DNA from: Raillietiella orientalis
Taxonomy: Eukaryota
Length of the DNA stretch: 64,000 nt
Assembly: GCA_036172245.1 (NCBI GenBank)
Contig: JAYWIR010000012.1
Coordinates: 4,216,001 to 4,280,000, forward strand
Direction: 5' to 3'
Under the pieces are notes generated by a model, which saw only the letters and a list, made by a program, of their open reading frames with translations, had not been told where the DNA came from and searched no databases. A program made the position numbers and the translations under genes. Below are positions 23,821 to 53,399 of the stretch, piece by piece; the first letter of the stretch is position 1, and every line of letters begins with the position of its first letter.

Positions 23821-23872
23821 CCTTCCGCGCGCGAACGCCCCCGCCGCGGTGACCGGACGCCCCTCAGACGAC

Positions 23873-24190
23873 GGCGGCAGCGGCGGCTCCGTCCGGGTGA
23901 GCGCGCCACCGCTTGCCGCCTCTGGAACCGGTCGGTCGCCTCCGCGTGCGAGCCGCTTCAGCGCGCGCTGCACGACCCCCCCGCGCCTGGACGCTGCTTG
24001 TGGCAACCGGCGACGCCTTCCACGGCGTCCGCTGAGTGTCGCGTCGGGAGCTCGCAGGCCCTTCCCGCCCGAACACGCCCTTCGGCGGCGGCGCCCTCCG
24101 GCAGTGAGAGAACGGATCGAGGTCGATCGACCTCAAGGCTTCTTTTGGCAACGCTTAGCCCGAGGGAGGGGAGTCCTTCCGCTTCGACGG
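23873..24190 (+). repeat. GC-rich dispersed repeat, copy A (~310 bp)
   Basis: Aligns by eye end to end with 33891-34196. Shared blocks include ggctccgtccgg, accggtcggtcgcctccgcg, gcaaccggcgacgccttccacggcgt, cggcggcggcgccctccgg, tcgaggtcgatcgacc and cgcttcgacgg. Confidence 0.9.
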
Positions 24191-26047: not shown

Positions 26048-26178
26048 GTCACGTGACTTCCGCAGAAACCCTCTGCTCCCCCTTCCCCGAAAATCGATAT
26101 GCTGTCCAGATGGCCCCCGGGACGGGAGAGGCTTCTGCGCCTCCGACAGGCTCCCGCGGCGGAAAGTGCACCTCAGTC
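26048..26178 (+). promoter_or_regulatory. Putative annexin core promoter: palindromic E-box GTCACGTGAC, DRE-like AATCGATA, initiator TCAGTC
   Basis: gtcacgtgac at 26048-26057, aatcgata at 26092-26099, tcagtc at 26173-26178; the ATG at 26217 is ~40 nt downstream of the initiator. Confidence 0.5.
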
Positions 26179-26216
26179 TCCACACAGCCGCGACACCCTC
26201 AGGAAGCGCCTTCGTC

Positions 26217-29200: not shown

Positions 29201-32137
29201 CGAAAAGTCGTAGAGGGCAACCCGAACTTGATCTACCGCACCGCGTTCTCCATGGCGACCGCGGGTTTGCGGCAGGAGACTTTGCCCCCCCCCCCACCCT
29301 TTCCTCCCGTCCTACTCACCCCGGGATCCGGGAGCCGTACCCTGGAAAGCAGGGTCGCGACTCCTCCGGCGAACAGAGAGGATGTGGCGAGGTCTCCCGT
29401 GGCAATGGCTCAGGGCTAGAAAAGCCGACACGGCACAGCAGCAACCAAATCTCCCCCTAATGCGAGGAGACGCGATGCTGCTGCTTTCCCTCCCCCCTTT
29501 CCCTGCCCCCAGAGGAGGGATGGGTGGAGGCGGATCGCCTCTTCGCCGGGGGGTCACGCGGGTGCCGTGGTGGAAGGCGCTCTCTGTGGGCTGGGAGCAG
29601 TCCTTCCCGGGTATGCAGGGGGAGAGGGAGGAGGAGGAAGATGGCACCGCCCCAACCCCTTCGTGACCTCGCGTGTGCACCCTGACCGCATTTCCGTTGC
29701 AGGACCTGCTGTCGGCAGGGGTCGGCCAATTCGGCACGGACGAGTCCATCTTCTTCAAGGTCCTCAACACGAGGAGCTACCCGCAGCTAAGGGCCCTCTT
29801 TGACCTCTACGACCGGACCAGCGAGAAGGACATTGAGAAGACGATCAAGTCGGAGTTCAGCGGGAACCTCCAAGAAGGACTTCTGGCCATAGGTGACCAC
29901 CAACCACTTGCCCCTGTTTTCGGCGAGACGACGCCTCTCTTCCCCCAGTGAGGATCTGCCGGGACCCAGCCCAGTTCTACGCGAAGGAGATGCACAAGGC
30001 GATGGAGGGATTGGGGACGGACGACCAGGCTCTGATTCGGATCGTCGTTTCCAGGCAACCGGTGAGAACCGGCTGCTCCGCAGCACCCGTCCTCTCAGCT
30101 CTGGCTGCGGCGGCAGGAGCAGGCAGGGGGAGGGAAGGGTCGCGCGATCCGGGACGGCTCTTCGACCGCCGCTCCCGCCGAAAAGAGGCGGGCATGAGGA
30201 AGCGCTCGGTGCGAGATGGCTGGCAGGAGGGCAGGAGGGGTGCTGCTGCGAGCAGGGGCAAGAGATGGGGAGGAGGTGCACCGGGAGCGAAGGGCGAGAG
30301 CCTGTCCCACTTCTCCGAAAGCCAGGAAGTAGTAGCCCCCGCACCCGCGCTTCCTGAACCCACGGAGTATCCGACCGGACGGGAAGAGCATCATCGCGAG
30401 TGCACGGGATGCAGGCAAAAGAGCAACTTCGTTGGGAAAGCGGAAAACCCACCGCTGCTCGCACGGAGCCCCCCCCCCCCCGGATGCGTCTCCAGCTTTA
30501 ACGCTGGAAGCCGAACCACCGGCGAGCCCCGCGCGCGCTTCGGGAACCGAAGACAAGAGAGGAAGGAAACTCGAGGAGGCCTCTGGGACCGTAGAGCCTG
30601 AGGGTGCTGCAGCAGCCAGCCCTCCTGACCGCCTTCTCCTTGTGGTTGGTGACGCGAGCGTCGGCGCCGCGACCATCCCGAGCCGATCCCATTCCTCTCC
30701 CCCGCCCGAACGTTCGTGACGTCGACGAAGAGACTCCGTCGAGGCGAGCGGCCGAGCCAAAGGAGCGAGGAATTCCCGGTCGTCGAAAACGTTTGGCCAG
30801 TTCCCCGGGGGAGGGCTGGCGTCGAAGGACGACCATCGCGGCGAGGGTACGTCCGCTCGGTCACGCGACGGGAAAACCGCGTCGCGGCGCATCCCGTTGC
30901 AGAGAAAAAAAAAAAAGCGACGAGGTCGCGGTTTCCGCTGCCCTCCTTCCAAAGCTCTCGGGGCGCGCGGCCAGCAGAACCGCAGCCATTCGTACGACCA
31001 TCAGCATCACTTGCGCCCATCTCACGGTGCGCAGCGCGCGCGTACTTTTGTTTTGCGTTTTTTTTTTTCCCCTCCGCCGTCGTTTGGTGCCGCGTCGGTG
31101 TTGCCGCGACGGCGTTTCGAAAGTGGCAACACTGCAACGGCCAGCGAAGAAAAAAATGAGAAACGCCTCTTAGGTATTATCGACTAATGAGTCTGTGTTC
31201 ATGATAGTTGGGATGACTTATAATTACGATGGTGTCCGTTATTTGGTCCTGAGATTAATAGATTGGAGAGCGCTGAAGACTTTGGGTGCGGTTCCCACCT
31301 AAGAGCAGTTGACGGTTTTCTCAGTTATTACGCTGGAGATCCAAGCATACGTTCTATAAATTGTGATTAGGCGACACTCCATAATTAGCAGCGTGGACGC
31401 TTCTGAAGTGTAAGATTCCAAACAATTTTTACCAAAGAGGTCATTTCCTTTTCACGAGATCCACTTCGTTTCCCAGTTGCGTAAACATCGTGAGGAGGAT
31501 TCTCACCATGATGGGTGTACTTTCTGCGGTGAGGTATATCCCGGTGGCTGTTGTTCGAACGTACGTAGGAAGTGCGTGGTCGTGATGGTCTGAAGCTCAT
31601 ATGCGAGCTGCCCCTAACCGCAAAAAAGGGAAAAGTGAATTGGAACAGATCTGCCGCACTGCTTCTCGGTAAGTTGGTCAGTTGTGCTTGTCGTGCAGCC
31701 GGGAATCCCTGGAGCATCATCTGCAGCCGACTTCAGAGAGTTCGTGCGCTGCCGCGAACGTTATGGCAGATTGAGAAAACTTTAGGCGTTTGCCGCGCCG
31801 GTCGTGGATGAATTCCGCTGGATTTTCCCGACCTTCTTGTGTACTGTAAACGTGTGCCCCGGCTGGAACGATTCTCTCTGGGTTTTTTTTTTTTTTTTGT
31901 TGTTGTTCCGCCTTTCAGTTTTAACCGTCCGCTGGTCCGCCAGCGCTGTTTTTGCGCAAGAAAATGCCAATTGCAAAATTCTCTCCATTTCAGGATGTCG
32001 TTGGTCCCTTTCAAACCAATATAAGAGACATCAGGCGCGCATACGAAAGCAAGTACCACATTTCTCTGGCAGATGCAGTGTACAGCGAAACCAGTGGCAA
32101 TTACCGCACGCTCCTATTGGCTCTCATAAATAAATGA
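26217..32137 (+). CDS. Annexin (four repeats) with N-terminal signal peptide-like exon, 8 exons, 369 aa
   Basis: Exons 26217-26366, 27238-27408, 27542-27655, 27711-27801, 27863-27999, 29703-29892, 29949-30061, 31994-32137; all GT-AG and in phase. Repeats: MKGWGTNE..KSETSG, VKGFGTDE..KSDLSG, GVGQFGTDE..KSEFSG, MEGLGTDD..YSETSGNYRTLLLAL. Exon 1 is less certain than exons 2-8. Confidence 0.93.
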
Positions 32138-33890
32138 AAAGCCGGCTGTTCCACCGTGTTGGACTGTCATGCTTTCGTATTTTGAATAAAGCAGTTCCCG
32201 AATTCGGGAGAGTTGCCTGTAGGAATAAAAAAAAAAAAAAAAACACGCGCACGCACGCACACCTACTCTTTGCGTCTTCCACTTCCCAACTGCTAGCGAC
32301 GGGAAGGACAGGGAAACGGCGTCTGATCCGCCTCGGTTGCAGGACAGAAGTTCTTTCGCGATCGTACAAAGCATTTCGGCGAAAAGTGGACACCCCTGTC
32401 GTCCTTTGAAAGCGGCCACACGGAATCGTTCCCCTGACCACCGTCGCTGCCGCCCTCGGGAACACCTAAGGAAGGTCCTTTTCGACTTAGCAACGAGCCC
32501 AAAGCAACCCTTTCTGCGAGCGCGTGCTGTTCGGAGGAGCAGATCGATTTCAGAGCGACGTGCACGGAAGACCCACTTCCCGCAACGTGAGGTGTTGGAC
32601 ACCAGCTTTCCTTTGCTCTGCATTCAGGAACAGCTCTTGGTTTTCAGAATCGGCTTCGTGATCCTTCGGTGGATGCCGCTTGTCGATGTGTTTGAGGTGT
32701 TCCCATCGATGCACCTCTTCGAGTGTGGCAACGGACTACTGCTAGCATCGCGGGAGCATTGCTTGGATTCCACGAACCCCCGTCTTCTGCCTAGAGCAGC
32801 ATGATTAAGGGATTATCATGCTAAAGCTCTCCAGTGCTCTTTCTGGAGACAAAGCATGCCTTTAATTTCAGGAACCATTGTGGATCCATTATGGTAATTG
32901 CTCACTGATCCATCCACGTCTTCCCAGATTGTCGAAATCAAAAGAGGTGATCTCATAGATCAGGCACGAAAATGACAGTTAAACATTAACGACAATATTG
33001 CATACCAAAGACTGAAAGGGAAGGAGCATCACCGATTCCTTGTGGAATAGTTCATCTGCCATTGGGAATCGAATAGAACAAGGGAAAGCTCAGTCATCAA
33101 ATGACTTTTGTAACAAGACGTCCAGTCGTTCCTGCAGCCCTTCTTTATGCATTTCTTCAGCAGGCTTGTGCTTTTTTCCTTTTTTCCTTTGCTGCTTTCC
33201 GTTCCAAACGAAGATGCTGATGAAAAAACGAGTGGTGCACGCGATAGTCTTATGTCTCATGACGAATCCCGAGTACCTGCAACCGAGTTTTATTTCAGGA
33301 ATTCAAGCTACGTTCCCATGACAAAAGGAAAAAGGAAAGACCAGTTCATTCGCAAAGATAATGCTAAAAAAGTTTCGTTGCAGAGCATAAAGATCTTCAA
33401 GCTACCGACAGGTATAATGCAAAGATTGATAACGTAGAAAAAGATGTTTTGCTCGACAGAGGAAACGTTCCGTCATGACCTCATCATCTGCGTACAAAGT
33501 GAAATACACACAAAAAAAAAAACAAATTTCAGGTTAACACCGTTTCAATTAATTCCAATTAATTAACACTGACGAAACGGCAGCTTCGTTCCACATAATA
33601 ACCTTCCGGAAAGAAAGACAACGTCGAGTGAGGATGGGCTTTTCACTTTAGAAGAGCACGCGGAAGTCGAGGCACTTCTTTCCGCCACCCGCGTCGCACG
33701 ACGGAACGCTTGGCGTCTGCTCCCGTGCCCCCCTGCTACGTGTCAGACCTCCAGCGTCCTCCACGGAAGGGAACTGCGCTCACCCCGGCGCCTCGGCGCC
33801 GGCTCACTCGCAAAACGCCCACACCCTTTCCTCCCGATCGCCGACGCCGGCGGCAGAAAGGCGCCGGGAGGAGGAGGAAGTGGCGGCGGC

Positions 33891-34196
33891 GGCGGCGGCG
33901 GTGGCTCCGTCCGGATGCGCGCGCCACCGCTCGCCGCCTCCGGGACCGGTCGGTCGCCTCCGCGGGCGAGCCGCTTCGGCGCGCGCGGCACGACCCCCCC
34001 GCGCCGCCCGTAGCAACCGGCGACGCCTTCCACGGCGTTCGCTGAGCGTCGCGTCGGGCGCTCGCCGACCCCTCCCGCCCGAACGCGCCCCTCGGCGGCG
34101 GCGCCCTCCGGAAGTGGGAGAACGGGTCGAGGTCGATCGACCCCAAGGCTTCTCCTGGCAACCCTTAGCCTGATGAGACTCCTCCCGCTTCGACGG
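33891..34196 (+). repeat. GC-rich dispersed repeat, copy B (direct repeat of 23873-24190)
   Basis: Aligns with copy A in the same orientation, ~10.0 kb downstream; differs mainly by transitions and one short indel. Confidence 0.9.
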
Positions 34197-34915: not shown

Positions 34916-37900
34916 AGGGATTCTACACAGAGATTGGAATCAGGAACTGCGGCAGAGTGTTGCCTCCCTGGACCTACCGTTAAATCTTGAACAAGATGGC
35001 GGATGTTGCCCAAGCGAGTGGACTGTCCATCAGACTCTGGTGACTCCCCCCCCGTCCCCTCCCCAATAGAGGGAAAAAAACGAAAAAGCAAAAGAAAGTG
35101 AATTCAGTGCGATTTGTGTGCAGGGACACTTGACAAAGTGTCTGCGGAAATGTGCCATCGCAGTTAGTTTGTTTGAAAGTCCTTCAACAGATCCACCCCT
35201 CCGCATGGCGGACTGGGGACAACCCTTGTCAGGCGTACCTCACCATCTTTCGGGGCTACTGTTCCTAAAAGTGACTGCTCGAACAGGGAGGCAAGCGGGG
35301 GAGAGTCTCGAGTGTTTTCATCTCGAGGGAGAGTCTGAAGAAGTTGCGATCGCTTCCAAGGCACATGGCGAAGAATAAGGTGCCCGCCTGGGAAGGAAGC
35401 CACGCTGTCCACAGAACAGAGTGGATGTCACGGCAGAAAGCAAGAGCTCGAGTTTTCAACGAACAGTATCTCCGTTTCCGTCCTCGATTAGACTACTGCT
35501 CTCGGGCCCAAGTAACAAACGTAGGCTCGTAAAGATGGGTCCATCGAGAGTCCTCCTTGATTTTATGCTGCAGGCGAGTAGCCGAAGTCACGGGTCCGGA
35601 GAAGAACTTCAGAACGATCAGAAAATGAACTTGAGTGAGCACGAGGAAGAGTCCTTGGGCACGGAGGCAATAGACAGGGCAGAGCGGATGATGGTGGCGG
35701 CGGTGCTCTCCAGCTCGCGCCCGCACCGATGAGGGAAGGCATCTGCGTTTCTCTCCACCACGGATCCAAGTCATGGAGTAGACAGAGAAGAAGAAAACCG
35801 TGGCATTTGTGAAGTCTTCGGTCTTCCGCTTATTTTCTGATTGAAAGGCAGCCAACGTCAGCACATCGTCGAGGCCGCAAAGCATTCGCCAGGGATGGAA
35901 TGGGACCGCTTCGTGCTGAGGAATGCGCGGGAAAGCAGGCATTCTGCTTGCTTGTCAAACCTCGGCCCCCCGCATCGTGGAATCGATGGTTAACAGAAGG
36001 CCGATGGGCTTCGACCTCTGGTTTCCATATGAGCAATCATAGCAAGGATTCAGTATCCCCATGTCCTGAGTTTTAGTAGGGTGGAATTTTTGCATAGACG
36101 CATGAACCCCCCCCCCCCCAAAAAAAAAATCATGATTCGACTGATTGGAAGACGTGAATTTGCGAAAACAAGTAAAAAAAACGAAGCGAAACGAAACGAA
36201 AGAGCGTGCAAAATCAGATCAGGTCGCGAATCCTAGAGGAAAAAGCGGGAACTTTCGAGAACGACTGCAAAGAGAGAACAGGACATCTGGATACACATAC
36301 TACGTTTCCTTATGATCACCTTCTGCCCTTAATTTCCTCGATAAGTCTTCAGTTTTTTTACAGTTGTTCGGTATGACAGTCAGTACGGAACTAATTCTAA
36401 ATGAATCTTTATGCTGTCTCAATATTTTTACATATTCAGACCCCCCCCCCCCTGTCAAAAAAAAAAAAAACACATCGTACTGTGCTCAAAACAAGAATTT
36501 CATAAATAAGTAGAAAAACACGCTGCTCCCAACCCTGTCATTCCATATCTCTAGACTCATCCCGCAATTTTTCACCCAGTAACACTTAGCTACTGCGTGT
36601 TCCAGAAGAAAGGGGGGGTTCTTTCCTGTCAGCAACCATGGCTTACGTTGTTGCCAGAGGGAACTGTAGCTCTGCATCCATGCAGAGCTTCCCCGGAATG
36701 ACCGGGTGGTACCAGAAACTGTAGCATGGGGCGGGACTGAATGAGCTCCACAGTAACGTCATATCTAATACTCCCCTTGGTATATCCTCGTATGCATGTA
36801 TAAAGCGACTAAACATTATGTTCAAAATGATGTGATCATCGCCATGGAGTACTTTTTTCATCTGCCCGCACAAAGTGTATTGCTATTGAAATCCAGTCTG
36901 TGGGAATGACAAATCAGGTAAAATAACCACAATCTATTTTTGTAAAAACTATTTGTGAAACAGTGTAATAGAATTCAGTTGATATTGTAACACAAGCACA
37001 ATACTTGGATTTATTTCTGTCTATAATCATTCATTTTATTTTATTTTATTTTTACTAAAAACATACATTTGTATCCTGGAAAAAAAAACACGCACACACA
37101 CAGTTCATATTCATTGTCAAACGGGAATTGGCGCAGCTTCTCACTCTCAGAGCAGGAAAGCATGTAAATACATAGCTACATAAGTGGAACACTGTGAATG
37201 GTGAGCACATTTGATTCTTTTTGAACTCAATCATATACTTTCCTGAAACGGAAGTTGTAATGCTCAATGCGTGAGTCACGCATCAGTCTTCAAGATTGAA
37301 ATGAATTTTAAACACGAAATCTCAGCATGTTGACTTTACTTCGTCCTACTATTTCAAACGCATCCATCATATTCATTTCATGTAACTTTCTAATAAATAT
37401 TTTGTATGTATTGGCTACTTTCTTACTCGTGAGCTTTCGGGAGAGAGAAAAAAAAGGGTGTATTTCTTTTGACCATTTCAATGTCTAAATTCATTTCGTT
37501 TCCATTTGCTCACTTTCCTTTCAATCGTGGCTTGATGTAGAAAGAAATGTGAATCTTAAATATCTTGTTGAAACGTTCAGAGTGCGCTCAAATACTCATC
37601 AGGCATCGAAAAGAAAAGCAATGAAAAAATCGAACCTGCAGATCTGTGAGAATAAGATGGGAAAACCAACACAAAGAAACATTATTCTAAATATGTCTTG
37701 CTGTATTTCGGTTCATGGGTGTAAATGATCCAAGTTGTTATCTAACGCCGATAAATTTTACAAATTCTAAAACACATTGGGCTATTCACTTTAGGGCAAA
37801 TGTGATTTCATGTGGCAATAAAAACGCGACTTTTACAATCTTGTTTACGTTTGCGAAATACTTCTCGTTATAACAGAAGATAATTAAAATAGCTAAAAGG

Positions 37901-38611
37901 GCTTTTGCGAAAGTTCTATCTCGAGAAAAACGAATGAAAACGAAACTAGCAACGGATTACATTTGCTTGCTGGAGAGTACTATGTCAAAAGAGAAGACAC
38001 GCTCAATAGCTGAACATATCTGGATAAACCTCAAGAAAAGCAATACATGGGAAATACACATCATTAGGGACGTGAAAGTGTACATTTTCAGCAGCACAAT
38101 CTTTCCATAAAATGATTGAATGAAATTATCGAACATATCGTAGATGTAGTATATGTGCCTGTAGACCGTGAGATTCTTGTGGAAATGTGCCCGTTAAACA
38201 ATTGCAATTTCCATAGAATATGTTGTGGTATTCCTGATCAAGGTTTTGATATTGTGAATGGTTTAAGTAATACGAATTTTTATTCAGTTTTTTGCGAATC
38301 GCGGTCTGCAAAATACGAATGCATGCTTGATCGAATTTTAAAAAGTGTTGTGTATCACTGTACTCGTTTATCAATATGGCAAGTCTACTGCTGCTTCCAT
38401 TGCAAAATAATGAATGAAAATAAGCTAGCAGTTTAAGAGCACGTACTCGTCGTAGGAATGTGATAGGAGCATCACAGGAAGTTTACGTTGAGCAAGTCTC
38501 CAAAGGTATATATTTACTCGGAGTAAATATTAGGGATCTGAAGTTTCATTGTATTGCAGTTTTATTTTAATCTACATATTCGGATCAACAGTGGCTCGTA
38601 ACGGTTAAAGA

Positions 38612-40239
38612 ATGCCAGGCATTGTATTTGAAAAGCAAGTAAATAATCCAGTATGGAAAGCTCTGAAGGCCCATATACTTCGTGAGCGACAAAGAAAAAA
38701 ACAAGGTAACGGTCGTAAATTCTACAGAAGATGTGTAAGAATGTTCTGAAAATATTTTATCCCTTTTTGCATTGCATTGAAGACCAGTATGTCCGTTTTT
38801 GTTTTTGATGATGTATTGTAATCCATTTTTAGAGCAAGAGGCAAATGCGGAAGAAGAGAGATTAAGGAAAGAACGAGAAAAAAAGCATAAAGAAAATGCT
38901 ATGACATTAGAAGAAACTAAAGAACAAATAACCAACCTGGAGTCTCGTTTAGCTCAGCTGAAGGAAGAGAAACATCAGTTATTTTTGCAATTGAAGAAAG
39001 TATTGAATGAAGATGAAAACCGGAAGAGGCAGTTGTTGATTAAAGAGAGCAGGTTATATATTCCCTTATTTTATTGAAATTTAGTCTGATTTAGGTAGTG
39101 CAAAAGTAACAAATTTCGATTCCCAAAATGCATTTTTTTTCAAGTTAAAGAAAGTTTTGCATTTAAAAGAACTGATTGTATTCAGTTGCCATGTATAATG
39201 CCTTTCACGAATGTTTTGTGTTTCCTGCTGTTTCACAAGAAAAGGAAGGGAAGTAAAATAGATTTTGTGCTAGTGCATTCTTTTGATCAAATGGTTTGTG
39301 TTCACATCACTCGAAAGTTGTGTATTTGGAAACTCAACATTTACTGAAGTATTCAATAACCACATTTCATGCATTCTGTTCTAACAAATGATTTCCTCTT
39401 TATTATTTTAGTGAAATGGCGATGGCCGGATATCAGCAAGATCCCTGGTCCTGTACTCCTCATCCTCCAGTTGTTCTGCAGACTTACCCTGGAGTATCCC
39501 CCAAGCCACCAGTGTCCTTCAAAATTCCCCTCTCTAACACTCATCAAGCTGGCTTTCCAACGGTACAACCAAGCTCTGATCCATTGCATTTTTTTGCATT
39601 CTTTCTATGCCAGACACTGATCAGACACCAGGATCCCAGTCCATCACCTCCTGCTTCAGCATATCAGTCACCATTTCAATTCAAGGCAAACCAGGGCCTA
39701 GTTGCATTTACACCATCTACCCAGAGTGAGTTTTTTAGTTTCAAGCAAGTGTTGACTGATCTTCCAATCTGCAGAATCAGGAAGCAGCATGTATTATGGG
39801 GTGCCTAGTACTCCAAGTAGCATAGTTGGCTCTGGCATGTCACAGCCTGCATATAGCTACAATAATCCTGGCCCTTATGTCATTGAATCCAAGCCACTCC
39901 TTGGCACGTTTCTGGCACCTCGTACTTACATGACTGGCTCCTTGCATCCTCAGCTGGAACCTGCTTCCCACAAGGCCAGCTATGTTGCAGCAGATTATGC
40001 TGGAAATCTGCAAACCCGACATGCATTACCAGTGGGTACTGTGGTAACATTGCAGCCTCGTAGTGATCCCAAAAGTGGAAGTATAACTCATGGTTTTCCA
40101 ATGAGACCTGTGCCTACCAACACCATTGGGGTAAGCTGAAAGTTCTCAAGAAGCATTTGTGATTTGCAATTAGACAAGCTATTCAGGGGTAGTGCCTCAG
40201 CGCATCACGTACTCCCAGCCAATGACACGATTTTATTAA
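38612..40239 (+). CDS. GPS2: G protein pathway suppressor 2 (NCoR/SMRT-HDAC3 corepressor subunit), 6 exons, 332 aa
   Basis: Exons 38612-38705, 38833-39052, 39412-39562, 39614-39725, 39775-40130, 40174-40239. The N-terminal coiled coil ALKAHILRERQRKKQE...MTLEETKEQI..LE..L..LKEEKHQLFLQLKKVLNEDE matches GPS2. It has a P/S/Q-rich tail ending RFY*, like the GPS2 C-terminus. Confidence 0.93.
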
Positions 40240-40240
40240 A
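40231..40240. terminator. Shared bidirectional stop/polyadenylation element TTTTATTAAA
   Basis: + strand: GPS2 TAA 40237-40239 and ATTAAA 40235-40240. - strand: SOD-repeat gene TAA 40238-40236 and AATAAA 40237-40232. Confidence 0.7.
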
Positions 40241-43200
40241 TGATGTGAATCACCAGATTAAAAAAGCCAAATTGCAGAGCTATCGGTAGTGCAATTCGAA
40301 ACCACGTAATGCTTTGAGAACTGGACTTGTTCGTCGAATAGCATGATTTATAAGGCAGTCTCTGTGGCCGATCTTTTCTAGGTGGTAAACCAGGAATGGA
40401 AAGACTGGGTGAGCGGAGGTCTTCACCTGCCAGCACAACATTCAAGTCCTGTTCCAGCTTTTCTGCTATGTGGCCTAAAACAGCATTAGCTTTGTGTTTT
40501 TAGACGTTGCGGCGCCGATTTTTACCCATGAAGTGGACTCTGATCTGTAAACAACGGTCTTCGGCGATTGATCGTAAACTTTGCCTTTCGATATTAAACA
40601 TCCACGCTGGCACACCTAGGGTTTCCTGAACGTCCCTCTCAAACCGCCATCTTGTCTTGCAATAACAAAATTTCGAAAAAGGGGAAACGCCTTTGAACAT
40701 ACGGATCGAAGGCTGGAGGTTTCAGAATGGTAGCCCATTTCGCCAGATGCTTATCCACAACGATATTGGCACAAGCCATGCGTTCGCCTCTTCCAGCCCT
40801 CTCCATAATGACGATTGATTTGCCAATGATAGACGTGCGGAAATCTCCCGCTGCCAGAAGTGCGTTATTCATTCAGACGAGCACACTTACATAGTGGAAG
40901 GTTAGCGTCGTTGTACACTGCCCGCCGACTTCCAATGGTCAGCATGCCTAACCGGCCACTGAGATCGCCAACCTCGCAGCGTAAAGGGGTATCCTTGGAG
41001 CATTCCCTGGTGTACTGGGCCGTCTGCAAGGAGCCCATCGTCCAGACGTGTGAACAAGTGCGACCCCGTGCCAGCTTACATTGCCTTGTTTCAGGAGATT
41101 GACGAAGTGTGGGTTCCAACGGTAACCGGCAGCCACGCATCTTGCAGCATAAAATTTCTCTACGCTGTCGTGCCCCACAGGGTTTACGTATACCGCCCAT
41201 TTGTGCCCGTTGGTCTATGCAAATTATAGGTTGACATTAACCGATGACGGGAATACCATGTTCTTATTGTTTTTCCCTGGATACTTCAAGTCAACTTCGA
41301 TGGTTGTATCCGTTGTGCCTCCATCTACGTACACTACTTGTTTCTGAAATGGTGTGTCGTAAGTAGATATTGCGACATGAAAAAAAGGTGCTCACAAATT
41401 TGATGTATCCGTATACAAATCCGGCGGGGTTGTGAAAAGAAGCGATCGCACTGTACTGTCTCGCTTCTTGAGGAGAAAATCCCCACGTGATAGAACTACA
41501 AAACCACCTGGAAAAACAACAACGAATTGGCCCGGAATCGCCCCTGTGGGTTCGGTTCCTTGGTGATTTTTTGTGCCCTTGTTCCGAGCACTTTCCAAAC
41601 ACTCGACACGCAAAATTAGCGTGCGTCCACCGTGAAATCAATCTCAGTTCTAATTTACGGTGAAGTACTTCGGGAGCCACAGCTTTGGTTCGGGGAGAGA
41701 TTTTCTGGGGAATAGTGGTGTGAAAAAATTGCCCTAAACGTAGTGGCAGTTGCAGAAATCTTTGTTTTGCGATCGGTTCCAGAAGTGAAATTTTTCCCTT
41801 TCGATAGATTCACACTCTTTTGTTGGACATGGAACCACCCAGGAAAAGGTTTGTACTTCAAGCGGCAGAGATGGGTCCATCGCGAGTTCATAAAAGGTGT
41901 CTTCCATCATCGCTTTCCGAAATCTCGATACATTGTGGTTCCTTAATGAACGTTATTTGCTGACATAATCGTCATGAAAAGTCTTCAAAGGACGGTTCTC
42001 GGTTTTAAATGACCATACTAGCAAACTCGGAAAATGGCATTAAAAAAAAACGAATGTAACGTGGGTTGACGCAGTAAATCTGTGAAGCATTTCGTCTTGC
42101 ACTGGTGATTGATGAGACAATGCAAGCGTTTGCGCCATTAAATCAAATAGAAGCTTCCGTGCTACTCTGGTGGACTTGCGAACGAGGTCGCAAATGCAAC
42201 CGAAAACTGCTGTACGAAACATAAGCGTGTTGCATTAGCGGATACAAAGGAACACTTCAGAGGGTTCCAAGCAATGGTACCGTTCGCGAGCGGGAAAACC
42301 GACAAGAGTCCACCGGCCGCTTTGCTAGAAACGGCAGTGCGAACGTGGATGGTTGTTTTGGGAACATTCGTGACTCACCTCGAGTTGTTCTTGCCGTAAG
42401 CGACCACGCTCCGTCCGACGATGCTGTATTCCCCGAAAAGCAAAAGGTTCGTGTCCACAAAAGACTCCTTCATGTCTTCCTTGAAAACGGGAGTACCAAT
42501 TTTGCCGCTGATGTCTCCCATGGCGTACTGGTCTTGACTCCTCCCCGACTCTTCCCCTGGTTTCCTGGACACATTCAATGGATTGTACATTTCGTACAAA
42601 ACGCTCGAATCGCAAGGGAACGCAGCATCGAGTCGCACGGAAACCATATGGACGGCATAGAGGAGCGAGAGTTCCCTTGGGTCCCGGAACTCGAACTGCA
42701 CCTGAGCTTCCTCTTCGGGAAGGTTCTGGTAGAACGCCAGCTTCGCGTGAACTTCTCCCAGGCATGTAGCTTCGTTCTTCAGGAACATCGTGGCTTCCGC
42801 CTTGTGGCGATGCTTCCGTATTATGCTGGAAGGGGAGAGATGGAATCCCCGGCAAGCAGTTTCCGCCGCTGGGGGGAAGACAGCGTCGGTTTCTCAGGAA
42901 TGGGCGGAGTCCCTCCCCTTCCTCTGAAAGCGAGCATGCTCTTCTTCCCCTTGGCTCACGACGAACTGCACCCCACAGACGTCTTTCCGGTTCCCCTTCT
43001 TGAGGTGGACGCGCCTACGCTCCAGAAAACCCGCGCAGGAGCCATCGGAGAGTGGCTGTCCTGGGAGAGCTGGGAAAGACCTTTCCGCACAGCTACTGTC
43101 ATCCCCAAAACTGTTGGTTGTGAGGTGAAGAGGGAAGGACGAAGTGAACGCTTAAGCTCAGCGTCCCGAGTCCGCGCCGGAAAAAGCGGAGGAAGGTGCG

Positions 43201-46200
43201 TTTATTCGGGCGGGGGTTGGAGACCTGAAGCGTTCGATTCTGCGTGCTTCCCGCCGTCTTTTCGGAACCCCTCCGTCCGGCTGCAAACCACGTGAAGGCC
43301 CTTGGTGTTCGCCGAGAGCGCCCCATCGCGTCCTCCCCTTCCAAACGTGTGCTCGGAGGACGTCAGGAGATCTGGGAGAGGCTGACGCTCCGCTTGATGG
43401 GGGACGGAAAGGGGGAATTTTCGACCTCCTTCCCACGGCGGGAAATCAAACTGAGTGGGGAAGTGCACCGCTAATAGCGACTGTGAACGCCTGGAAAAAA
43501 CGGAGGAACTTTCCGAGAGTTTGTGGGAAGATCCTGCACGGCGACGACGCGTGGGGAAGGGGGAAACCCTGGAACTGTAGGAGAGAGAAGGAGTCTTACG
43601 CCGGCTTCCCGGCCGCTTGACTGGGAGACTACAGCGTCCCGCTGGGAAGATGGAAAGGAGCAACTCCAGAAGGTGGGAAGCTGGCAGACACGGAAAGGTG
43701 GGGGAGATTCTCTCCACGTTTCAGCGCTTGGATAGGGGCTGTTTCCATGCTCCTGGGGAGTGTCTGAGGAAAATACTGGAAAGAACCAGATCCCTTCGTT
43801 CCCTGGGTGATTCACTCGCACATCATTTCCTGAACGGGAAGAATCGCCGCAAGGCGCAAAAGCAACCCGTGAGAAAGGAAACAGCTTCCTCTTCCCGTCC
43901 CGGAATAGGAAGCGGGCAGAGAAGTGAGAATAGGGGAGTTGGCACTCCTCGCGCTTCTGAAGCAACGCGAGGAATTCTTGGAGGCGAGAAAGTGCGTCCG
44001 CAATCCCGGCAAGGAAGAACGAAGTTCTCTCTCCTTCCCTTCTTCCGGGCGGGCACATTCGGTGCGACCATTCCTCTTCCCGAACGCGGGCGGTCGTGCC
44101 CACGGCACGCAGCGAAGCCGGGGCCAAACAGAAGAGGGTCGGAAGGAGGAACTCCATCGCCTCCCTGCCGAGGATTAGCACGCCGAACGAATGGGGTCGC
44201 GAGCTTCCCTTCTCAGGAGGAGCGCAAATGCGTACATCTCCCCGTCAGTCGGGAAGGAAATCAGGGAGGTGGCGGAGGGCAGGAAAAGGTGAGGCACAGC
44301 CCCCTCCTCGAATTTTAGCGATCTGGAAACACGCGCACGCCAGTCTCGGTCCCCACATCAATGGTGAGACCCCTCCTGGTCGGAAAATGAGGACGCACGT
44401 TCTCCCCAAGAACGCTCCTCCTCTCATCTCCTGAATGGGAAGGGAGGACAGGGAAGGAAATGTTCAGACGTTCACAATGACCGCGGATGCGCTGCGTCGT
44501 CTTCAACGGTAAGAGATGGTCGGTGAAGGCGGACTGCGTGCTTGCCCTGCTCGCTCCAAGAAGAACCAGCAAAAGGCGAAAGAGAGGAGATTGGTTGACG
44601 TAGTAACATCTGGTGCTGCACACCTCGCTCGAAAAAAAGAAGGGAGGACGAGGAACTCTGAGCTTCCGGGAATCAGATCCCCGATGTTCCCCTCCCACAA
44701 AGGAGGCGGTAAGCTCCCGGTGGAGGCGGGAGCAAGAGGAGGGGAGGTCTTCGCCACAGCCGTCCTCTCCCTCCTCCCCCGGGGAAAGTGTCCTCCTCTG
44801 CTGCTTCCCGCTGGGCAACAAACCCGCGTCCGTGCGACGGAGCAGGGCTGCAAATTTGCGCTGCTGGAGCGCCGGCCACATTGGCGACACGTAGCGACCT
44901 CGGTGCCAGGGATTCCATCTTCTTTGCAACGCCAATAGAAGAGATTTCTCCCTCGAAGGGATCCTCAGCCAGCGGAGGCAGCGGAAAAACAAGGAGATGG
45001 CGCGCTGTCCATTCCTTCAACTGGTTAGGGACCGGCAGACACACCAAGCAGATGCAGGCTGGCGTGCCCGAGGGTCCGTTGGGAAAAGAGGGCTCCACAG
45101 GTTCTCAGAACCGACCGTAGTCCTCCCCTTCCGTGGAGGACAGAGAGGTGTCCGGCAGAGGGGTACGGGGAGGAAGAGAGAAGAGAGGTCTACATGCCAT
45201 GTAAGGTTACCGGCGTCTCGAAGGAAGGAAGGCAGTCCCTCCGTCGCCAAGAGGTAAAGGAGACCCGTCAGACCGGGTGCTTGGTGAAGACAACCGCGGA
45301 GGAAGGAGGCAGAGGCGGAAGCAATAAGGAAGAGGGGAAGAAACGCTGGGCACCTTGCCTCAGTCTCCCCTGTCCCCTGCCCTCTCGGTATTCAGATCGT
45401 CCCAGCCTCCCAGCAGATGCAGTTCGCCACGGGAAGAGCACTTCAGAGCTGGAAGGGACTCCTACCAACAACTTCTGTGGGTAAGGATATCCCCACCTTT
45501 TTTGCCAATCCCCGAAGCGGGTTTCGGTCGTTCAGGGGACGCCAACGGATTTCTTCACGGTTTTAGACGTCCGAAATGGCACTGGTGCCTGCAAAGCCAC
45601 CGAAACTGGACAACTGACGGACACGCACGCCAGGGACACTCCCTTCCCCCTACACCTACTCCCTTCTTGTCTTGGAGCGAAGAGCCACGCGTAAGACACC
45701 AGCACCTTCTCCCGAAACGCGCACAGAAGAAAGAACGAAGTCTCCGGAGTCAGGAAAGAGGGGGGACGTACCTGGTACAGGACAGGCGGTCACCCCTGAG
45801 CTTGGAGCGGCCGTCGTCGAAGAGAACCAGTGACCTGCCGATGATGGAATGGGACCCTGACAGGGGCAACTTCTGGACCGTGAAGAGCCTCCGGGAACGG
45901 TGAAGGTCGCTCCGGCGACCGGCGACGATCAGCTCTCCCGTCCAGGGCAAAAGGTCGCCGAGAGGTGACGAAGAGCCCGGCATAGATGTGTCCTCCTCCT
46001 GAGGAAGAGAAAGAGAGAGCGGAGGTCGGGGGACGAAAGCGAAGGAGGATGGGGAGGAACGCACGTGGAAAGGGTCGAACACCCTTCCGGCGCTGAGGCA
46101 CCTGCCCGTCCAGTTGATGCGGTCCTCGCCAGGAGCAATCTCGTGCACAGCGAGCCGGTGTCCACCTGTGGTGTCCTCGCTCCCGTCGCTGTAAAGGAGG

Positions 46201-49200
46201 AACTCCACGGAGACGGTGGTGTCCGCGTCAGGTTCTCCGGGAGCCTGCCGGAAAGTCACAACACCCACGAGGGGGTACCGAAAGATCGCCTGAGCGACAA
46301 CGACAGTGCCCTCCTTCCCTCGCTCCTGCAGGTTGGCGCAGATCCACGAAGAGTCGTCCACAGCGTCGAACAACACGACGGCCCTGCCGACGACGCTGTG
46401 CTGCCCGAAGAGTGGCAGGTTGGTGTCGTAGCGCAGGCCGTCCGCCGACGGCGCGCCCTCCAGGGAGCTGTGTTTGCCACTCAGGTCACCCACCGCGTAC
46501 TGGTCGTGGGTGCCGTTGCCTCCCGCGAGGTCCGGTCGGCGCCCCGCCTCCGCTCCGAAAGGGTCGTACAGGAGGAAGGGCTCGCCTCCGCAGTCCTTCC
46601 TCCCGTCGAAGGACGTGGGCAGCTGCCGGATTTGCATCCTGCCGGCCAGACCCCGCAGGCCGCGCAAGGTCACCCTCAGCACGGACGGGTCGAACGGGGA
46701 CGCTTGTGTCACCGCGACCTCCCCTTGCACGCCGTCCGCTTGAATGACTGCCGCCGCCGACTTGTTCCGGGAGACCAGGATCTCCGCGCAACCCAGCGCC
46801 CCTTTCTTGGGATCCGCGGGGTCCCGGACCAGCAGGAAGAACCGGCGGCTCGAGTTGAGGACATCCGGGGGAAACGTGAGGTCGGTCACGAGGAAGCCCG
46901 GAGAGGCGCTTCCCAGGGGCACAGGACCGTGCTTCCCGGTCAGGTCCCCTATTTTGCACTCGTTCTGCGATGTCCGGGAGCACAACTCGTCGCTGCGGTC
47001 GTCTGGATCGTAGAGGATTTGCAATGCCTCGCAGTGCTTCCCATCTGGTGGTCACAAAAAAGGAATTGAGGAGAAGGAACAGGAAGAGGAGAAGGAGAAT
47101 CGAAGCAGAGTCGACCCCCCTCCCTCCCACTTATAGCGGCTCACCTCTCTGGAGGACGTCCGTGACGAGGATCTGCCATGGGCCGTACTCGGGCGCCGCC
47201 GCCGCGGAGGAAGGTGATGGATGGCTGCGCAACCTGCCAAGGATGCTGGTGAGGAATGCGTCTCTTCTCCTCTTCCTCCGGGAAGTTTTCACGGTCCGGA
47301 AGAACACATCTCCCCGGATGCCGCCGTGGAAGGTGGCCTTGGCCAGGACCTCCTCCTGATCCACCGCCTGCGAAGTGAGGGGAATGGGGGAAAGGGAGAA
47401 AGTAACATCCGGTCGAGCGGCGACGAGAGGGGGAAGGTAAGAAAGAGAAGGGGTGTGGGGAAGGGGGGCGTACCTGGATAGTGGCGCAGGCCAGCTTCGT
47501 CCCCTTGACCACCACGCTTCTCCGGAAGATGGAGCGCGTACCCAGGAGAGACACGGCTTCCGTCTGAAGATCGCCCCTGGCCGGGACGACGAGGGCTCCC
47601 ACTTCCTGGGTCAGCGCGACGTACGGGCTGCGGGGAGATGAAGAGGGGAAGCCCTCGGAAGGAGCGGCAAGAGGCAAGTGGAGGGAAGAGTGGGGGGGGG
47701 GGGGAGGATGAGACATCGTCACCATCCACGCTTCGTTTCCGTTTCCAGGGGTAAGGGGGACTTCGGAGGGAAAGAAAAAAAGAGCGTCGTGCCCTGTGGG
47801 AGGGTCCCATCCTTTCCTGTTCCTCTTCTCTCACCTTGACCTCGGGAATGGAGGGAAAGAGGGAGCTCGTCCTCTGGGAGGACTTGCCGTAGGCCAAGAG
47901 ATGGAGGATGGGAACCGTTCCAAACGAGGAAGACTTGCCCCTTCGCTCCCTTTGTTTCTATCCCATCCTCCTCCGTCCTGCCGAAGGCGCCGTCGTTGCC
48001 TTTAAGCGTTTCCAGCCACAGAGTCTCTCCGGCTTCCCTCCTCCTTCCCTCCGTCCCCCAACAGGAGGCGACTAGGAGAGGGACCAAATGGAGAACAGCT
48101 GGCTGGAAGCAGGATGGATGATGGGGAAGCCGAACCAGGCCGTTTTCTCCCTTACGTCAGGAGTGGAGGGAAGTCAACCGAAAGAAAACCCTCTCCTTGA
48201 GCACCCTTCCTTCCTCCCCACGAATACCCCCTTCTCTGTTGCCTTTCGCGGGAGAGAGCACAGGGAGGGATGAGGAGAGAGGATCTGCTGCTCCGATAGG
48301 ACACCAAAGCGCGCCGCTCCCTCTTCAAGAGGGGAGTCCCGGCGCTCTGCTCACCTTAGACCCAGGTGCTGCTCGCTGCATGGATTCTTCTTCGTGTAGT
48401 CAACGGAGAGAGGGTAGATGCTCCACTGGTAATCCTCTCCCGCGGAATCCTCGCCCGTGTTCCCGGCAAGCTGTATGTCCACAGCGATCGTGACGGGTTC
48501 GGACGAACTGTTCTGGGAAAAGGATATCTCTCCGGAGAGCCCGTCCATCGAGATGAGCGCCACCATCTTCAGAGCGGAAACGAGATGATCTGGAAATCGA
48601 TACGATAACAGTCAGTGGGGGCGGATTCGGAGATGGAGAAAACGAGTGGGGAGGGACACGGCAACCGATATATCCCCTTTCCCCTCCCCCTCTCCCCCCC
48701 TTTCCTTTCCCATCCACGACTTCCGCGCAACGGGCTGGCACCTCAACCGGAGCGTCACCCGGAAGCCCCAGCATTTGAAAGGGAGCATCTTTGGGAAGGA
48801 AAAATAAAAGGGGGGGGGGAGACCCCTCGATTCGGATGAGAACTTGATACCCTTGGATATTCCGGAACGTTCCGCCGTTCAGGGAGGTCCGCATGCCGCT
48901 GCGGAGCTGAGAGCATTTGCAGAACGTGGCTGCCCAGCTATCACCGCGCTGCGGGAAAGATTCCGTGCACTTCCGGACCCCCGAGAGAACGGCACCGGGA
49001 GCATGCTTTCGCGTTACAAATCTCATAACGAAGTTAGCAGTTTGGTACATATGAAGGGGGAAGAAGAAAGCAAAAAGAAAAAGGAAAATCACCTTTCTGG
49101 AAAAGAAAAAAAGGAAACGCCAGACTTCATTCCCAGCTCCCCGTCCCATCGCAGATGGAACCGCTCTTGAGCAGGCAGCAGAATAGGGCTGCCTTTCTGG

Positions 49201-52200
49201 AACCGTCCTTTTCCGTCGGCTTTCCCGGCTGCCGGAATGCAGCAAGAACGTCGAATCGCACAAAGCAGGAAAACGCAATGAACGACACCGCACTAATGTT
49301 CCAGGGTTTGGCCCAATTTCCGTTTCGTCGTGCTCACTGAGGAATTCGGCCGGTGGTGAATGATGAACACGAATTTGCCTGACTTTAATTGCATGAAATT
49401 GCAGATGGAGCACCCATCGTGCCCTAACAAAGGACGGTTAGCCTAACGTACGAACAATCAACGCGGGTAGCCAACTGCTTTCTTGTTTTCGATTTGCATT
49501 TTCCAAAAAAAAGAAAAATTTGAATAATGGGAAGAGCTGGGAGAGAGAGAGCGAGGAAGAGGAATACATTCTTATGATAATTTGTGTACCACTGTTGCCT
49601 TCCATGTACAGTTTTTAAAAAAAAATTTTTTTTAAAAAAATGGCGTTTCCATCTTGAACTGAGGGTGCGTTTTTTGCTATTAAGACTCTGTGCTGATCCG
49701 CTGCCTTGAATTTTTGTAGCTGGAATTGCATGCTGTTAAGCTTAGTGTCTTCGTTTTCTTTGATGCATATTCCTGCAATATCCCTACTGCTGCTCAAGTT
49801 TTTCGTTTGGACGGAGAGTGTATACTGGACTCATTTTACCAGCGCCCTCCTCCTCCCTCGCATGACCATCGGGAGTCGAATGTACTGAAAATCACCAAGT
49901 TGTTCATTCTGTTAAGACACGGCTTGTTTTCGACAGAGGCCTTTGGCTTTGGAATCGGAAGAAGAAGAAGAAGAAGAAAAAAAGATTTCTGATTGCGTCA
50001 TAACTTTTCATACGGAGAAATCAACACGTCAGAATCAAATCTAGCGTACGACTGATTCGTTGGACCTAAGAGAATACATGCAAATAAACTGTAAATATTA
50101 AAGTACAAGGAAATTAATTTTTCGTGATCTAAACAGGTTTCGTGAACTAGAAGCATTCTAAATCACACAAACTATGAATCAGCATGCCGCACATATTGAA
50201 CTGTTAAGTGTGGTGCGTTGCTCCCGCGAATTCATGAAGTTCGAAGAACACGTGATGTAAAGCTGTGAAGAATCTTGTTTTTCCAGAAAGCTGCAAGAAC
50301 CGCGCGCTAAACGCAAAGACGTAGGGTGTGACTCATTAGAACAGGATAACCTCTGTTGTGGGCTCGAAGTGCGTCTGTAAATTCTGATGATTGCCTGATC
50401 CGTTTAGCTTTGCCCAGACTTCAAGTTAGTTGAAGTTTTTGATGGTGGCCAAATTTTGGCGAGCCCTTTCATGTTTTGAAAGCTTTCCTAGAGCACAACA
50501 CGACTTCTGCGCCGACCAAAGTTTTCCCTCGGAAAAGAAAAAAATGAAGCCAAAACACTAGAAAGTTTTCAGGTCTTCATGCTCTTCGTGAAAGGAGAAG
50601 CACGGAGCAGCCGGCCGTGCGCAAGCACTTGCGTGCATTGGGTATCCTGTGATAAAAATGGAGATCCTCACGCATGAAGCATTCACTGAAATTCGATTGG
50701 GTGGGCAGGCCTAATGCCTGCTTTTCGTGGAGGTTGGTATGCAACTCGTGAAAACTAACAGGAAAACTGGGCATTTCCTTGCTTCCAGCTCCACTTTAAT
50801 TAAGGAATGGAAACAAGTCTATCGATACCGGTGAGAAGGAGTTCCATTATATTAACAAGTGGCTCGGAAATTCAGAGACTAGTTATTGGGGCTGTTGCTT
50901 CTTTAGAGCGCTGTGAAGAAAACCAGCAGACAACACAATAGCGTAAAAATGGCAGCTCCTGACGGAATCAGTAAATGAGAATATCTGCATCTGCGCATGA
51001 TGAGATAATCAAATTAAGGTGATTAATCTGAAAAATGATAATCGCGTGACCAGTGATCACCGGTGAACAAACTTTAGAACGCCATCCGCCTGGATCCCAT
51101 ATGTCTGCATTGAGTAGTTTCTCTTCTGATTGCGTTTCAAGTCATTGGTTACGCGGAGGTAGTAGCCACCTTGCTGGGGGAATCGCCTGCTTGGAATCAG
51201 GCAACCGGCGAAACTGAGACAAAGCGGAAACCAATGTTCGCATCTTCCCGGTGAACAAGAACGAACCGACTAGTCTTCGTACTTGACGTGCACCTTTCTC
51301 GAACAACGCACTCTCTTTCAGTCTGGAAAGTCAACGTACTGATAACCGCAACCATCCGGCGAATATATTCAAATATTCCTAGCAGGTTCCCAAGGCCCAG
51401 AACGGACCGCACAGACACTACGGAATGCCCAAACCGAAAACGCAGGGTTGGTTATCGACTCGAAACGCACGGTTATTACGATTACTTAGGCGCGTTATTA
51501 GATATTAGCATAAATCGCATTTTTTCCTCTGCAACTGCAAGCGGCCGCTGGATTTCTCCCGGGTGCCACTCGGGGCGGATGCGGACGGGGGAAGAAGAAG
51601 AAAAAAAAAAAAAACGCGTGGCAACAATGCGGCGATTTCCGAGAGCGCGGGCGGACGCGCTTCCGCGAAGCGGCGTTCGCATTCCAGAGAGTTTACGCAG
51701 CTTTCCCAGATTCGAAAAGAGAGAGAGAGAGAGCGAGAGGGAGAGAGAGGAGAAGAGAGAAGAAAAAAAAAAAAGAGGAGGAGGGGGGGGGGGAGAAACA
51801 GAAAAAAAAAAACAAAGCGAGAAAAGCTTTTGCGAGAATCATGGGATTAGTTGACCCGAGCAGAAAACCAAAAAAAATTCTACAGGAGAGAGAGGGAGAG
51901 ATCGTAGCGTAAAGTATTACAAATTTCCAAGTAACGGAGCCAATTGAGGTTCCCACTTTCCAAGGTGATGGCGTCATATCACGGAATGTGTTCATTTCGG
52001 CTTCGCGGACCTGACACGCGGCTCGTAATTTAAAGGAGAAAGAAGAAGAAGAGGCAAGCAAGCAACGAAGGCGGCGGCGGCAGTACCGAAACCACAAGGA
52101 GCCTCCCCCGGACAGATGAGGATGCTGATCCCTCCTCCGCGCCGGATCCCAAATGCGCGCGCGGTGGTGGTGGCGGTGCGTCGTCAGGGAGGCGGCGGTT

Positions 52201-52309
52201 CGCATCCTCCTTGCAGATCGCGCGCGAGCTGAGGGCATGAAGCAGAAGAAAATGTGCAACACTTACTGGACAAAGCCGAAACGAGGATGCAGAAGGGGAT
52301 GCAGGTCAT
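40236..52309 (-). CDS. Cu/Zn-SOD-like repeat protein (Rsod/CSRP family), six SOD-fold domains, signal peptide and GPI-like hydrophobic tail, 14 exons, ~1095 aa
   Basis: Exons 52309-52267 (inferred signal exon), 48589-48355, 47627-47474, 47367-47145, 47044-46065, 45998-45772, 42825-42379, 41507-41396, 41343-41257, 41214-41080, 41023-40891, 40850-40703, 40650-40526, 40474-40236; all in phase. Repeated SOD-fold motifs GDLSGKH/GDLTGKHG/GDISGK/GDLSGR, DTNLPLFG.HSVVGRAVV, SIIGRSLV and RMACANI. Confidence 0.92.
51714..51826 (+). repeat. Polypurine (GA/A/G-run) low-complexity tract in intron 1 of the SOD-repeat gene
   Basis: About 110 nt of almost only G and A: (GA)n, A-runs and a G-run. Confidence 0.85.
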
Positions 52310-53399
52310 TTGTGGGTGCCGTTCAGCGGGTTCGCCTCCGCTCTCGAGCCGTTTCCATTGCTGACGACGTGAGATCACACGACTTTTCCGCGCAAAAAGT
52401 GGAACAATTTCTGAAGCGGAGAGGGGGAGGAGGAGGGGGGCGGCGGGCGGGCGACGAGGAGCAGGCGAGTTCCAGGACGTGATTCTATGGAATCATTCTA
52501 GGATGACATTTTTTGTGTGTGTTGTTGTTTCGCCACAAAACCACCTGTCATTACACAAAACGCGGGAGGGGGGGGGGGCAGACAATGGAGCAAAATCGAG
52601 TGAAGTTCTTCCGGCGAGCGCTCTTTTTCCGTCAGCACCCATCCGGAGAGTGGAGGAAGGCAGAGCTGCCAAACAAAGGTCAGATGGCTAGCACGAGAGC
52701 ACAACGCGAGGGCGCTCGCCAGGTACGGCCCTCCGGCGAGCACGGAATGGTACTTTCGTGTGTTTTGCTCCTTCCTTTCAGCGATTCGGCCTTTTTCTTC
52801 CTTCCTCCTCGCTTTCTCTTTTTTCTTTTCTTTTTTTAATTCTGCTTTTGGCCTTCCTCCCCCCTCTCCGCCGCCTGCAGGGGACTCGAATTCCGTCGTG
52901 ACGTGCCGGGAGTTTCGTGTCTCTTATGGGGAGGGCCTTCGGGGGGGGGGGGGAAATGCCGTTATGTGCGCTGGTGACGAAGGACGGAAGTGCGCGCAAG
53001 CGGCTGGCAGCGGGACTGCTTCGACGGGGGCGCGAGCAGGTGGGCGAAGGAGGCGCGCGCAAGTCCTCCTGGCTCGAGGGACTCCCGTGTTCTTCTTCCC
53101 CCTTGTCGGGACGGCCTTCCGCCGGCGGAGTCGAGTGGCAGCGGCGGAGCGATGCGGCACGTTTGCGTGCGGGTCCCTGCCTCCTGGGCCAATCCCGCCC
53201 GTCCGTCCCGGCCGGGTGTGTCCCGACGAACAGAAGGGCGAAGCTGCAGAGACGCAAAGGACGGGATGCTGCCACTGCCGCCGCCGCCCTTGGAGACAGA
53301 CGCAGCTCCTCGCCGCCTCTTCCCCCACCCGCACGGCGAGGTCCCTCTCTTCGCGGCAGACTCAAGGAAGACGCGCTCCCTCGGGGATGGAGAAAGAGG

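Follow-up and report, generated by a model that had tools for sequence, protein, structure and literature searches.

DNA viruses have bidirectional poly(A) signals, and in Giardia and Trichomonas the stop codon overlaps a poly(A) hexamer-like signal, the 3' untranslated regions (3'UTRs) are ultrashort, and convergent genes end a few bases apart. In this study, a junction between two convergent animal genes was analyzed and compared with these and other described systems. The junction lies in a 64,000-nucleotide stretch of Raillietiella orientalis DNA (GenBank assembly GCA_036172245.1, contig JAYWIR010000012.1, positions 4,216,001 to 4,280,000 of the forward strand), which is referred to as the window and is numbered from its first letter. 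A homologue of GPS2, a corepressor subunit, is encoded on the plus strand and meets, tail to tail, the gene of a Cu-only SOD repeat protein (CSRP) on the minus strand. The two coding sequences (CDSs) abut with no DNA between them.

Among described gene pairs, the overlap reported most often in human, mouse, and fly is a convergent partial one, and the same report describes UTR-on-UTR overlaps as preferentially retained and overlaps with coding sequence as selected against (PMC2330155). In Drosophila, convergent 3'UTR overlaps are described as the main class of cis-NATs (natural antisense transcripts in cis) giving small interfering RNAs (siRNAs), with 21-nt endo-siRNAs and 371 loci from 3' convergent pairs (PMC4079977). 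The sense and the antisense transcript in convergent pairs are reported to share polyadenylation regions in Arabidopsis (PMC3032780), and bidirectional termination zones are described in yeast (bioRxiv 10.1101/2022.11.02.514956).

The GPS2-CSRP pair is the same as the animal 3' cis-NAT pairs in that two protein-coding genes on opposite strands point at each other. However, the animal pairs are mostly UTR-on-UTR, whereas the GPS2-CSRP junction holds no UTR-only DNA, its stop codons share two bases, and the UTRs fall on the partner's coding exon. In Giardia and Trichomonas, the stop/poly(A) arrangement recurs throughout gene-dense genomes; here, it is seen at a single junction in an animal with about one recognizable gene per 10 kb in the window, and the signals are candidates. 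The shared poly(A) regions of Arabidopsis, yeast, and viruses resemble the candidate region here in that both transcripts end, or at this junction would end, in one common short region. They are located in non-coding DNA that separates or follows the CDSs, whereas the candidate region at this junction consists of the stop codons themselves. The original prediction had placed the arrangement more typically in viruses or highly reduced genomes. This holds for the stop-in-signal design and fails for the convergent 3' overlap, which is the commonest class in fly, human, and mouse. The junction joins known features at one gene-sparse animal locus, and it differs from the known systems in degree, not in kind. 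No paper on the GPS2-CSRP junction was found in a non-exhaustive literature search.

The two gene ends were read on both strands, and the features that define the junction are as follows.

38612 to 40239, plus strand: CDS of the GPS2 homologue, six exons, 999 nt, 332 amino acids (aa)
40236 to 40474, minus strand: last CSRP exon, 78 full codons with a split Gly codon and the stop, ending in the tail ...NLVIHII
40236 to 40239, both strands: TTAA with both stop codons, from the sequence read on plus and minus
40231 to 40240, both strands: decamer TTTTATTAAA, from the sequence, reading ATTAAA on plus (40235-40240) and AATAAA on minus (40237-40232)

The decamer spans the two gene ends, and positions 40228-40247 on the plus strand read CGATTTTATTAAATGATGTG. 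GPS2 ends with CGA TTT TAT TAA (R F Y stop), with its stop TAA at 40237-40239. CSRP ends with CAC ATC ATT TAA (H I I stop), with its stop TAA at 40238-40236. Both stops are contained in the TTAA, bases 40237-40238 are common to them, and the number of intergenic bases is zero. In both genes, the stop codon shares bases with a canonical hexamer. The sequence on both strands therefore agrees with what had been predicted from the plain letters: two stops interlocked in TTAA with a decamer hexamer on each, and a convergent pair without intergenic DNA whose stops overlap by two bases. The decamer is present once in the 64-kb window, and 10 of 100 whole-window shuffles contain at least one copy. Given a TTAA at a fixed site, the chance of the other six decamer bases was calculated from the local base composition as about 5e-4, a post hoc value. 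It was also observed that the CSRP frame closes with a tandem TAA TAA on the minus strand, the second stop (40235-40233) being part of the AATAAA hexamer.

The plus-strand gene had been named GPS2, and the identity is upheld by a Pfam match, colinear exons, and family-typical C-terminal motifs. Exon 2 matches Pfam PF15991, the N-terminal coiled-coil domain, at 101 bits (cut-off 34.3; E 1.8e-28). When 1.84 billion representatives were scanned with exon 2, 356 proteins were found at E <= 0.001. The library proteins at E <= 1e-10 number 115, and the identity of exon 2 to those aligned is 61-76%. The named homologues are arthropod proteins, from ticks, a leafhopper, and a mayfly. In tblastn searches with 14 GPS2 homologues, exons 1 to 5 were colinear on the window. 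A further query of exon 5 against longer proteins yielded 418 candidates, with none scored. The gene model is composed of the following parts.

38612-38705, 38833-39052, 39412-39562, 39614-39725, 39775-40130, and 40174-40239, plus strand: the six GPS2 exons, from the splice check and colinear tblastn
40131 to 40173, plus strand: GPS2 intron 5, 43 nt, GT..AG, in line with the 40-56 nt of the remaining short introns in GPS2 and CSRP
40174 to 40239, plus strand: GPS2 last exon, 21 codons (TSYSGVVPQRITYSQPMTRFY) and TAA, with an R-I-x-Y-S-Q motif and a terminal R-F-Y

All five introns (127, 359, 51, 49, and 43 nt) are GT-AG, and the 332-codon frame has no internal stop. The junction 40130/40174, on which the predicted gene end depends, is GT-AG and in frame across the 43-nt intron. 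The C-terminal part of the last exon reads ...QRITYSQPMTRFY, and the protein ends in ...TRFY, like tick GPS2; two named tick proteins end in ...RFY. C-terminal motifs were counted among 53 GPS2 homologues of at least 270 aa: R[FY]Y forms the exact end in 7, R[FY][YFMI] is found within the last 12 residues in 16, and R[LI]xY[ST]Q is found within the last 45 residues in 8. One of the 14 tblastn queries aligned RLVYSQPVT with RITYSQPMT at 40201-40227 on the last exon. Exon 5 has K-S-G-S-I-T-H-G-F-P-M at its end. The corresponding motif G-S-I-T-x-G-[FY]-P is present in 25 of 159 GPS2 family proteins, all 25 of which extend 19-79 residues past it. The model extends 30 residues past this motif, and 11 or 10 residues would follow it if intron 5 were retained or the 40187 acceptor were used. 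The 21-codon last exon is thus judged, from sequence comparison, to be correct with good confidence.

The minus-strand gene, predicted as a SOD-repeat gene, was identified as a CSRP. The CSRP, Rsod, or cusr proteins consist of tandem Pfam PF00080 domains. They are described as extracellular, with 4-12 repeats, and as either GPI (glycosylphosphatidylinositol)-anchored or secreted; amniotes, flatworms, nematodes, and rotifers are reported to lack them (PMC13017621). The exons located here, in addition to the last one, are listed below together with the last intron.

40475 to 40525, minus strand: CSRP last intron, 51 nt, GT..AG
40526 to 40650, minus strand: CSRP penultimate exon, in frame with the adjoining exons
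40703-40850, 40891-41023, and 41080-41214 or beyond, minus strand: exons encoding the last SOD-like repeat; introns 52, 40, and 56 nt
42390-42851, a large exon in the open reading frame (ORF) 45753-47051, and 48354-48575, minus strand: upstream CSRP exons, from colinear tblastn matches

The large exon in ORF 45753-47051 encodes 433 aa and matches Pfam Sod_Cu PF00080 with 34.6 bits (cut-off 28.9). It has 92 long homologues, of which the best are 37-38% identical across 98% of the exon. Those with names come from mites, crustaceans, and insects. CSRP orthologues of 1000-1150 aa are colinear by tblastn from 48575 to 40275, and residues 834-999 of one of them (P0001) map to 41340-40705. The penultimate and the last exons correspond to residues 1005-1043 and 1047-1111 of another orthologue of 1124 residues (P0014), with BLASTP E values of 9e-10 and 5e-10. 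After this alignment, 12 residues are left in the CSRP here versus 13 in P0014. The last two exons match the C-terminal 120 residues in arthropod CSRPs, and the alignment to the orthologue C-terminus, the Sod_Cu match, and the 92 homologues together bear out the named identity. The predicted junction 40526/40474 is also GT-AG and in frame, with a 51-nt intron. Hydropathy climbs over the last approximately 25 residues, and a Ser/Asn-rich stretch precedes the hydrophobic tail, as in the orthologues. By eye and without counting, most of 45 orthologue C-termini are hydrophobic, and a few truncated or mis-modelled ones differ. The protein is probably extracellular and GPI-anchored, and the last exon as modelled appears almost certain to be correct.

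Some further properties of the two genes were observed. Between 38706 and 41079, the GPS2 and CSRP introns include a very short GT-AG class of 40, 43, 49, 51, 51, 52, and 56 nt. CSRP also has kb-scale introns of about 1 kb (41340 to 42390) and about 2.9 kb (42851 to 45774). Its large exon lies in a block with a G+C content of about 0.63, and its 3' exons are at about 0.47. The proteins of both genes are ordinary members of their families by sequence; the unusual feature is their genomic juxtaposition. From their homologues, the two genes belong to an arthropod-like animal.

Both proteins end where their relatives end. This indicates that the abutment came about through loss of spacer and UTR or through precise juxtaposition, and not through run-on frames. 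A lost stop codon that extended one of the frames was considered and ruled out, since GPS2 and CSRP both end at family-typical positions. Because no intergenic DNA exists, any 3'UTR of GPS2 or CSRP runs antisense across the last exon of its partner. The prediction that the 3'UTRs run antisense over the partner's last codons follows directly from the abutting CDSs. If both genes are transcribed, their mRNAs form an obligatory 3' cis-natural-antisense pair, a conclusion of logic and not of measurement.

The candidate poly(A) signals were then compared between the two strands. ATTAAA starts on the plus strand at 40235, 40257, and 40593; the second of these had been predicted near 40256 and was found at 40257-40262. 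On the minus strand, AATAAA is located at 40237-40232, and no further canonical hexamer occurs for more than 440 nt downstream. The next minus-strand candidates are weak variants near 39795 and 39739, about 440 and about 500 nt on. The candidates other than the decamer are as follows.

40257 to 40262, plus strand: second ATTAAA, 18 nt past the GPS2 stop
40593 to 40598, plus strand: third ATTAAA, a candidate distal GPS2 site in the CSRP penultimate exon
40202 to 40231, minus strand: G+U-rich stretch (G+U 0.65-0.70 in 20-nt windows), antisense to GPS2 codons and a putative downstream element and cleavage zone for CSRP

For the CSRP side, a shared stop/poly(A) module is plausible. For GPS2, G+U on the plus strand climbs to 0.55-0.65 beyond the second ATTAAA at 40257, and the first hexamer is followed by an A-rich stretch. 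This makes the second ATTAAA, or a distant site such as 40593, no less likely a candidate signal for GPS2 than the hexamer on the stop. A search with Rfam models over positions 36000-44000 gave none at E <= 0.1. About 100 nt around the junction fold no better than shuffled sequences on either strand (z +0.93 and +0.90), and a hairpin terminator was discarded on this ground.

Conservation of the junction was examined in a metagenome scan with a GPS2 alignment, in which 29 GPS2 loci were found. CSRP was detected near GPS2 in none of the 29 loci (tblastn, 14 CSRP queries, E <= 1e-4), most of which have short downstream flanks. The downstream neighbor of GPS2 could be named in two loci, and in both it lies on the same strand as GPS2 and at least 1.7 kb away.

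L002, 9551-10433, same strand as GPS2: Golgin A5, downstream neighbor
L028, 7935-10968, same strand as GPS2: Sec10 (exocyst), downstream neighbor

These differing neighbors indicate that the GPS2 neighborhood varies among these animals. Six GPS2 relatives, five cDNA-like contigs and one genomic locus, were inspected for hexamers. In none of the six does a hexamer lie on or within 35 nt of the stop, and the first canonical hexamer is found 39-329 nt past it. A metagenome scan with the 433-aa CSRP exon gave 329 pattern matches, of which none was confirmed. With no CSRP in the 29 loci, other neighbors in two, and no hexamer on the stop in six relatives, the GPS2-CSRP arrangement is lineage-specific, and the stop-embedded signal is no trait of the GPS2 family.

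On balance, these data favor a genuine, extreme, lineage-specific tail-to-tail pair of conserved nuclear genes with abutting CDSs, in which the nearest hexamers are the most likely to be used. In this lineage, the spacer and both ancestral 3'UTRs would have been lost, or the genes would have been juxtaposed. The cleavage and termination zone of each gene would then be placed inside the partner's last exon. For CSRP, the predicted signal is the AAUAAA on the stop, followed by the G+U-rich stretch, which would give a 3'UTR of about 15-35 nt. For GPS2, the predicted signal is AUUAAA at 40235 or 40257, which would give a 3'UTR of about 15-55 nt. The mature GPS2 and CSRP mRNAs would be complementary over only about 30-90 nt, and transcriptional collision or siRNA production may be a consequence. 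The stricter claim, that the decamer is a working bidirectional module and that both 3'UTRs are shorter than about 55 nt and made wholly of the partner's last codons, is considered unlikely.

Several observations weigh against the favored pair with nearby signals. The stretch after the first plus-strand hexamer is A-rich, with G+U of 0.2-0.5. The adenosine deaminase ORF, the one other gene end examined in the window, has its first AATAAA about 500 nt downstream, which lends no support to stop-embedded signals as a general feature here. In the metagenome scan, only 3 of the 29 GPS2 loci reach at least 3 kb beyond the GPS2 C-terminal motif. The evidence for the GPS2 last exon is at the motif level only. 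No match to it was obtained for 13 of the 14 tblastn queries, and BLASTP against tick GPS2 gave no alignment for exon 6 and only E 0.13 for exon 5. With a hidden Markov model (HMM) of the last 40 residues of 53 unselected homologues, the last exon ranks first of 2382 window ORFs, at an E value of only 1.8 and with a lead of 0.4 bits over the next ORF.

Part of this evidence fits another account of the same gene pair, in which the stop hexamers are incidental and the transcripts run hundreds of bases into the partner as an ordinary long 3' cis-NAT. GPS2 would extend at least to the ATTAAA at 40593, and CSRP at least to one of the weak variants near 39795 and 39739. The A-rich stretch and the distance of 39-329 nt to the first hexamer in the six GPS2 relatives both speak for such long transcripts, as does the A+T-rich context of the stops, which makes hexamers cheap. 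Convergent 3'UTR overlaps of great length are also described as common in Drosophila (PMC4079977). What counts against them is the minus strand, where a G+U-rich stretch comes directly after AATAAA and no other canonical hexamer is met for more than 440 nt, together with the two plus-strand ATTAAA copies at most 26 nt from the GPS2 stop and the low post hoc chance (about 5e-4 given TTAA) of the decamer. A long overlap is therefore held to be quite possible, though doubtful. A terminal exon could also differ in vivo, through retention of intron 5, use of the 40187 acceptor, or another CSRP 3' exon that gives a secreted form. The GPS2 last exon has only 21 codons and falls below significance in pairwise searches, and CSRPs are described as either GPI-anchored or secreted (PMC13017621). 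However, the alternative GPS2 ends would leave 10-11 residues after the motif, without R-F-Y, against 19-79 in all 25 homologues, and the CSRP last exon aligns with the orthologue C-terminus at E 5e-10 and agrees in length within one residue. Such a change of exon is improbable. Lastly, an assembly artefact or a deletion specific to this individual could have removed a spacer. The window contains no N, no repeat is located at the junction, and both frames end at family-typical positions, which random deletion would rarely achieve; this explanation is very improbable.

The surroundings of the junction were characterized over the whole window. Six genes were recognized: those of signal peptide peptidase, adenosine deaminase, and annexin, GPS2, CSRP, and a VTT-domain match. 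Those other than GPS2 and CSRP are as follows.

2924-3268, minus strand: signal peptide peptidase, from Pfam
15985-17214, plus strand: adenosine deaminase, a single ORF of 410 codons, from Pfam
27238-30598, plus strand: annexin, several exons, from Pfam
57239-58039, plus strand: VTT-domain match, Pfam 30.8 bits, under the cut-off of 33.9

About 8 kb separate the last annexin-matching ORF from the GPS2 ATG, which makes the zero spacer between GPS2 and CSRP conspicuous locally. The original prediction had described the surrounding DNA as loose and repeat-rich and the junction as unexpected there. The loose character is seen in the six recognizable genes in 64 kb and in the gap of about 8 kb before GPS2, and the junction is indeed an exceptional spot in a gene-sparse window. 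The repeat-rich character was not borne out, as the window holds only ten short tandem-repeat rows and one dispersed pair of 322 bp. In a self-comparison of the window, this sole pair lies at 23869-24190 and 33887-34196, is 87% identical over 322 bp, and flanks the annexin region. The G+C content is patchy, from 0.31 to 0.67 in 2-kb windows (20000-32000, 42000-48000, and 52000-56000). Blocks rich in G+C have many open frames, which inflates ORF lists.

Whether or not the shared signals are used, the junction is a warning to annotation pipelines, which often forbid CDS overlap and could truncate the GPS2 or the CSRP model. If the signals are unused, the junction is an extreme entry among convergent overlapping gene pairs. 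If they are used, it would be a natural minimal animal test of how short a sequence can terminate two convergent transcripts, and two unrelated conserved genes would be without independent 3'UTRs. The possible consequences are a lack of space for microRNA sites, forced antisense pairing, and siRNA production or transcriptional interference. If the stricter bidirectional module should be true, no room would be left for conventional 3'UTR regulation, and precise loss of both ancestral UTRs in this lineage would have created the junction. A corepressor subunit gene and an extracellular SOD-like gene would then be tied together by polymerase collision or by a duplex of 30-90 bp that feeds siRNA production.

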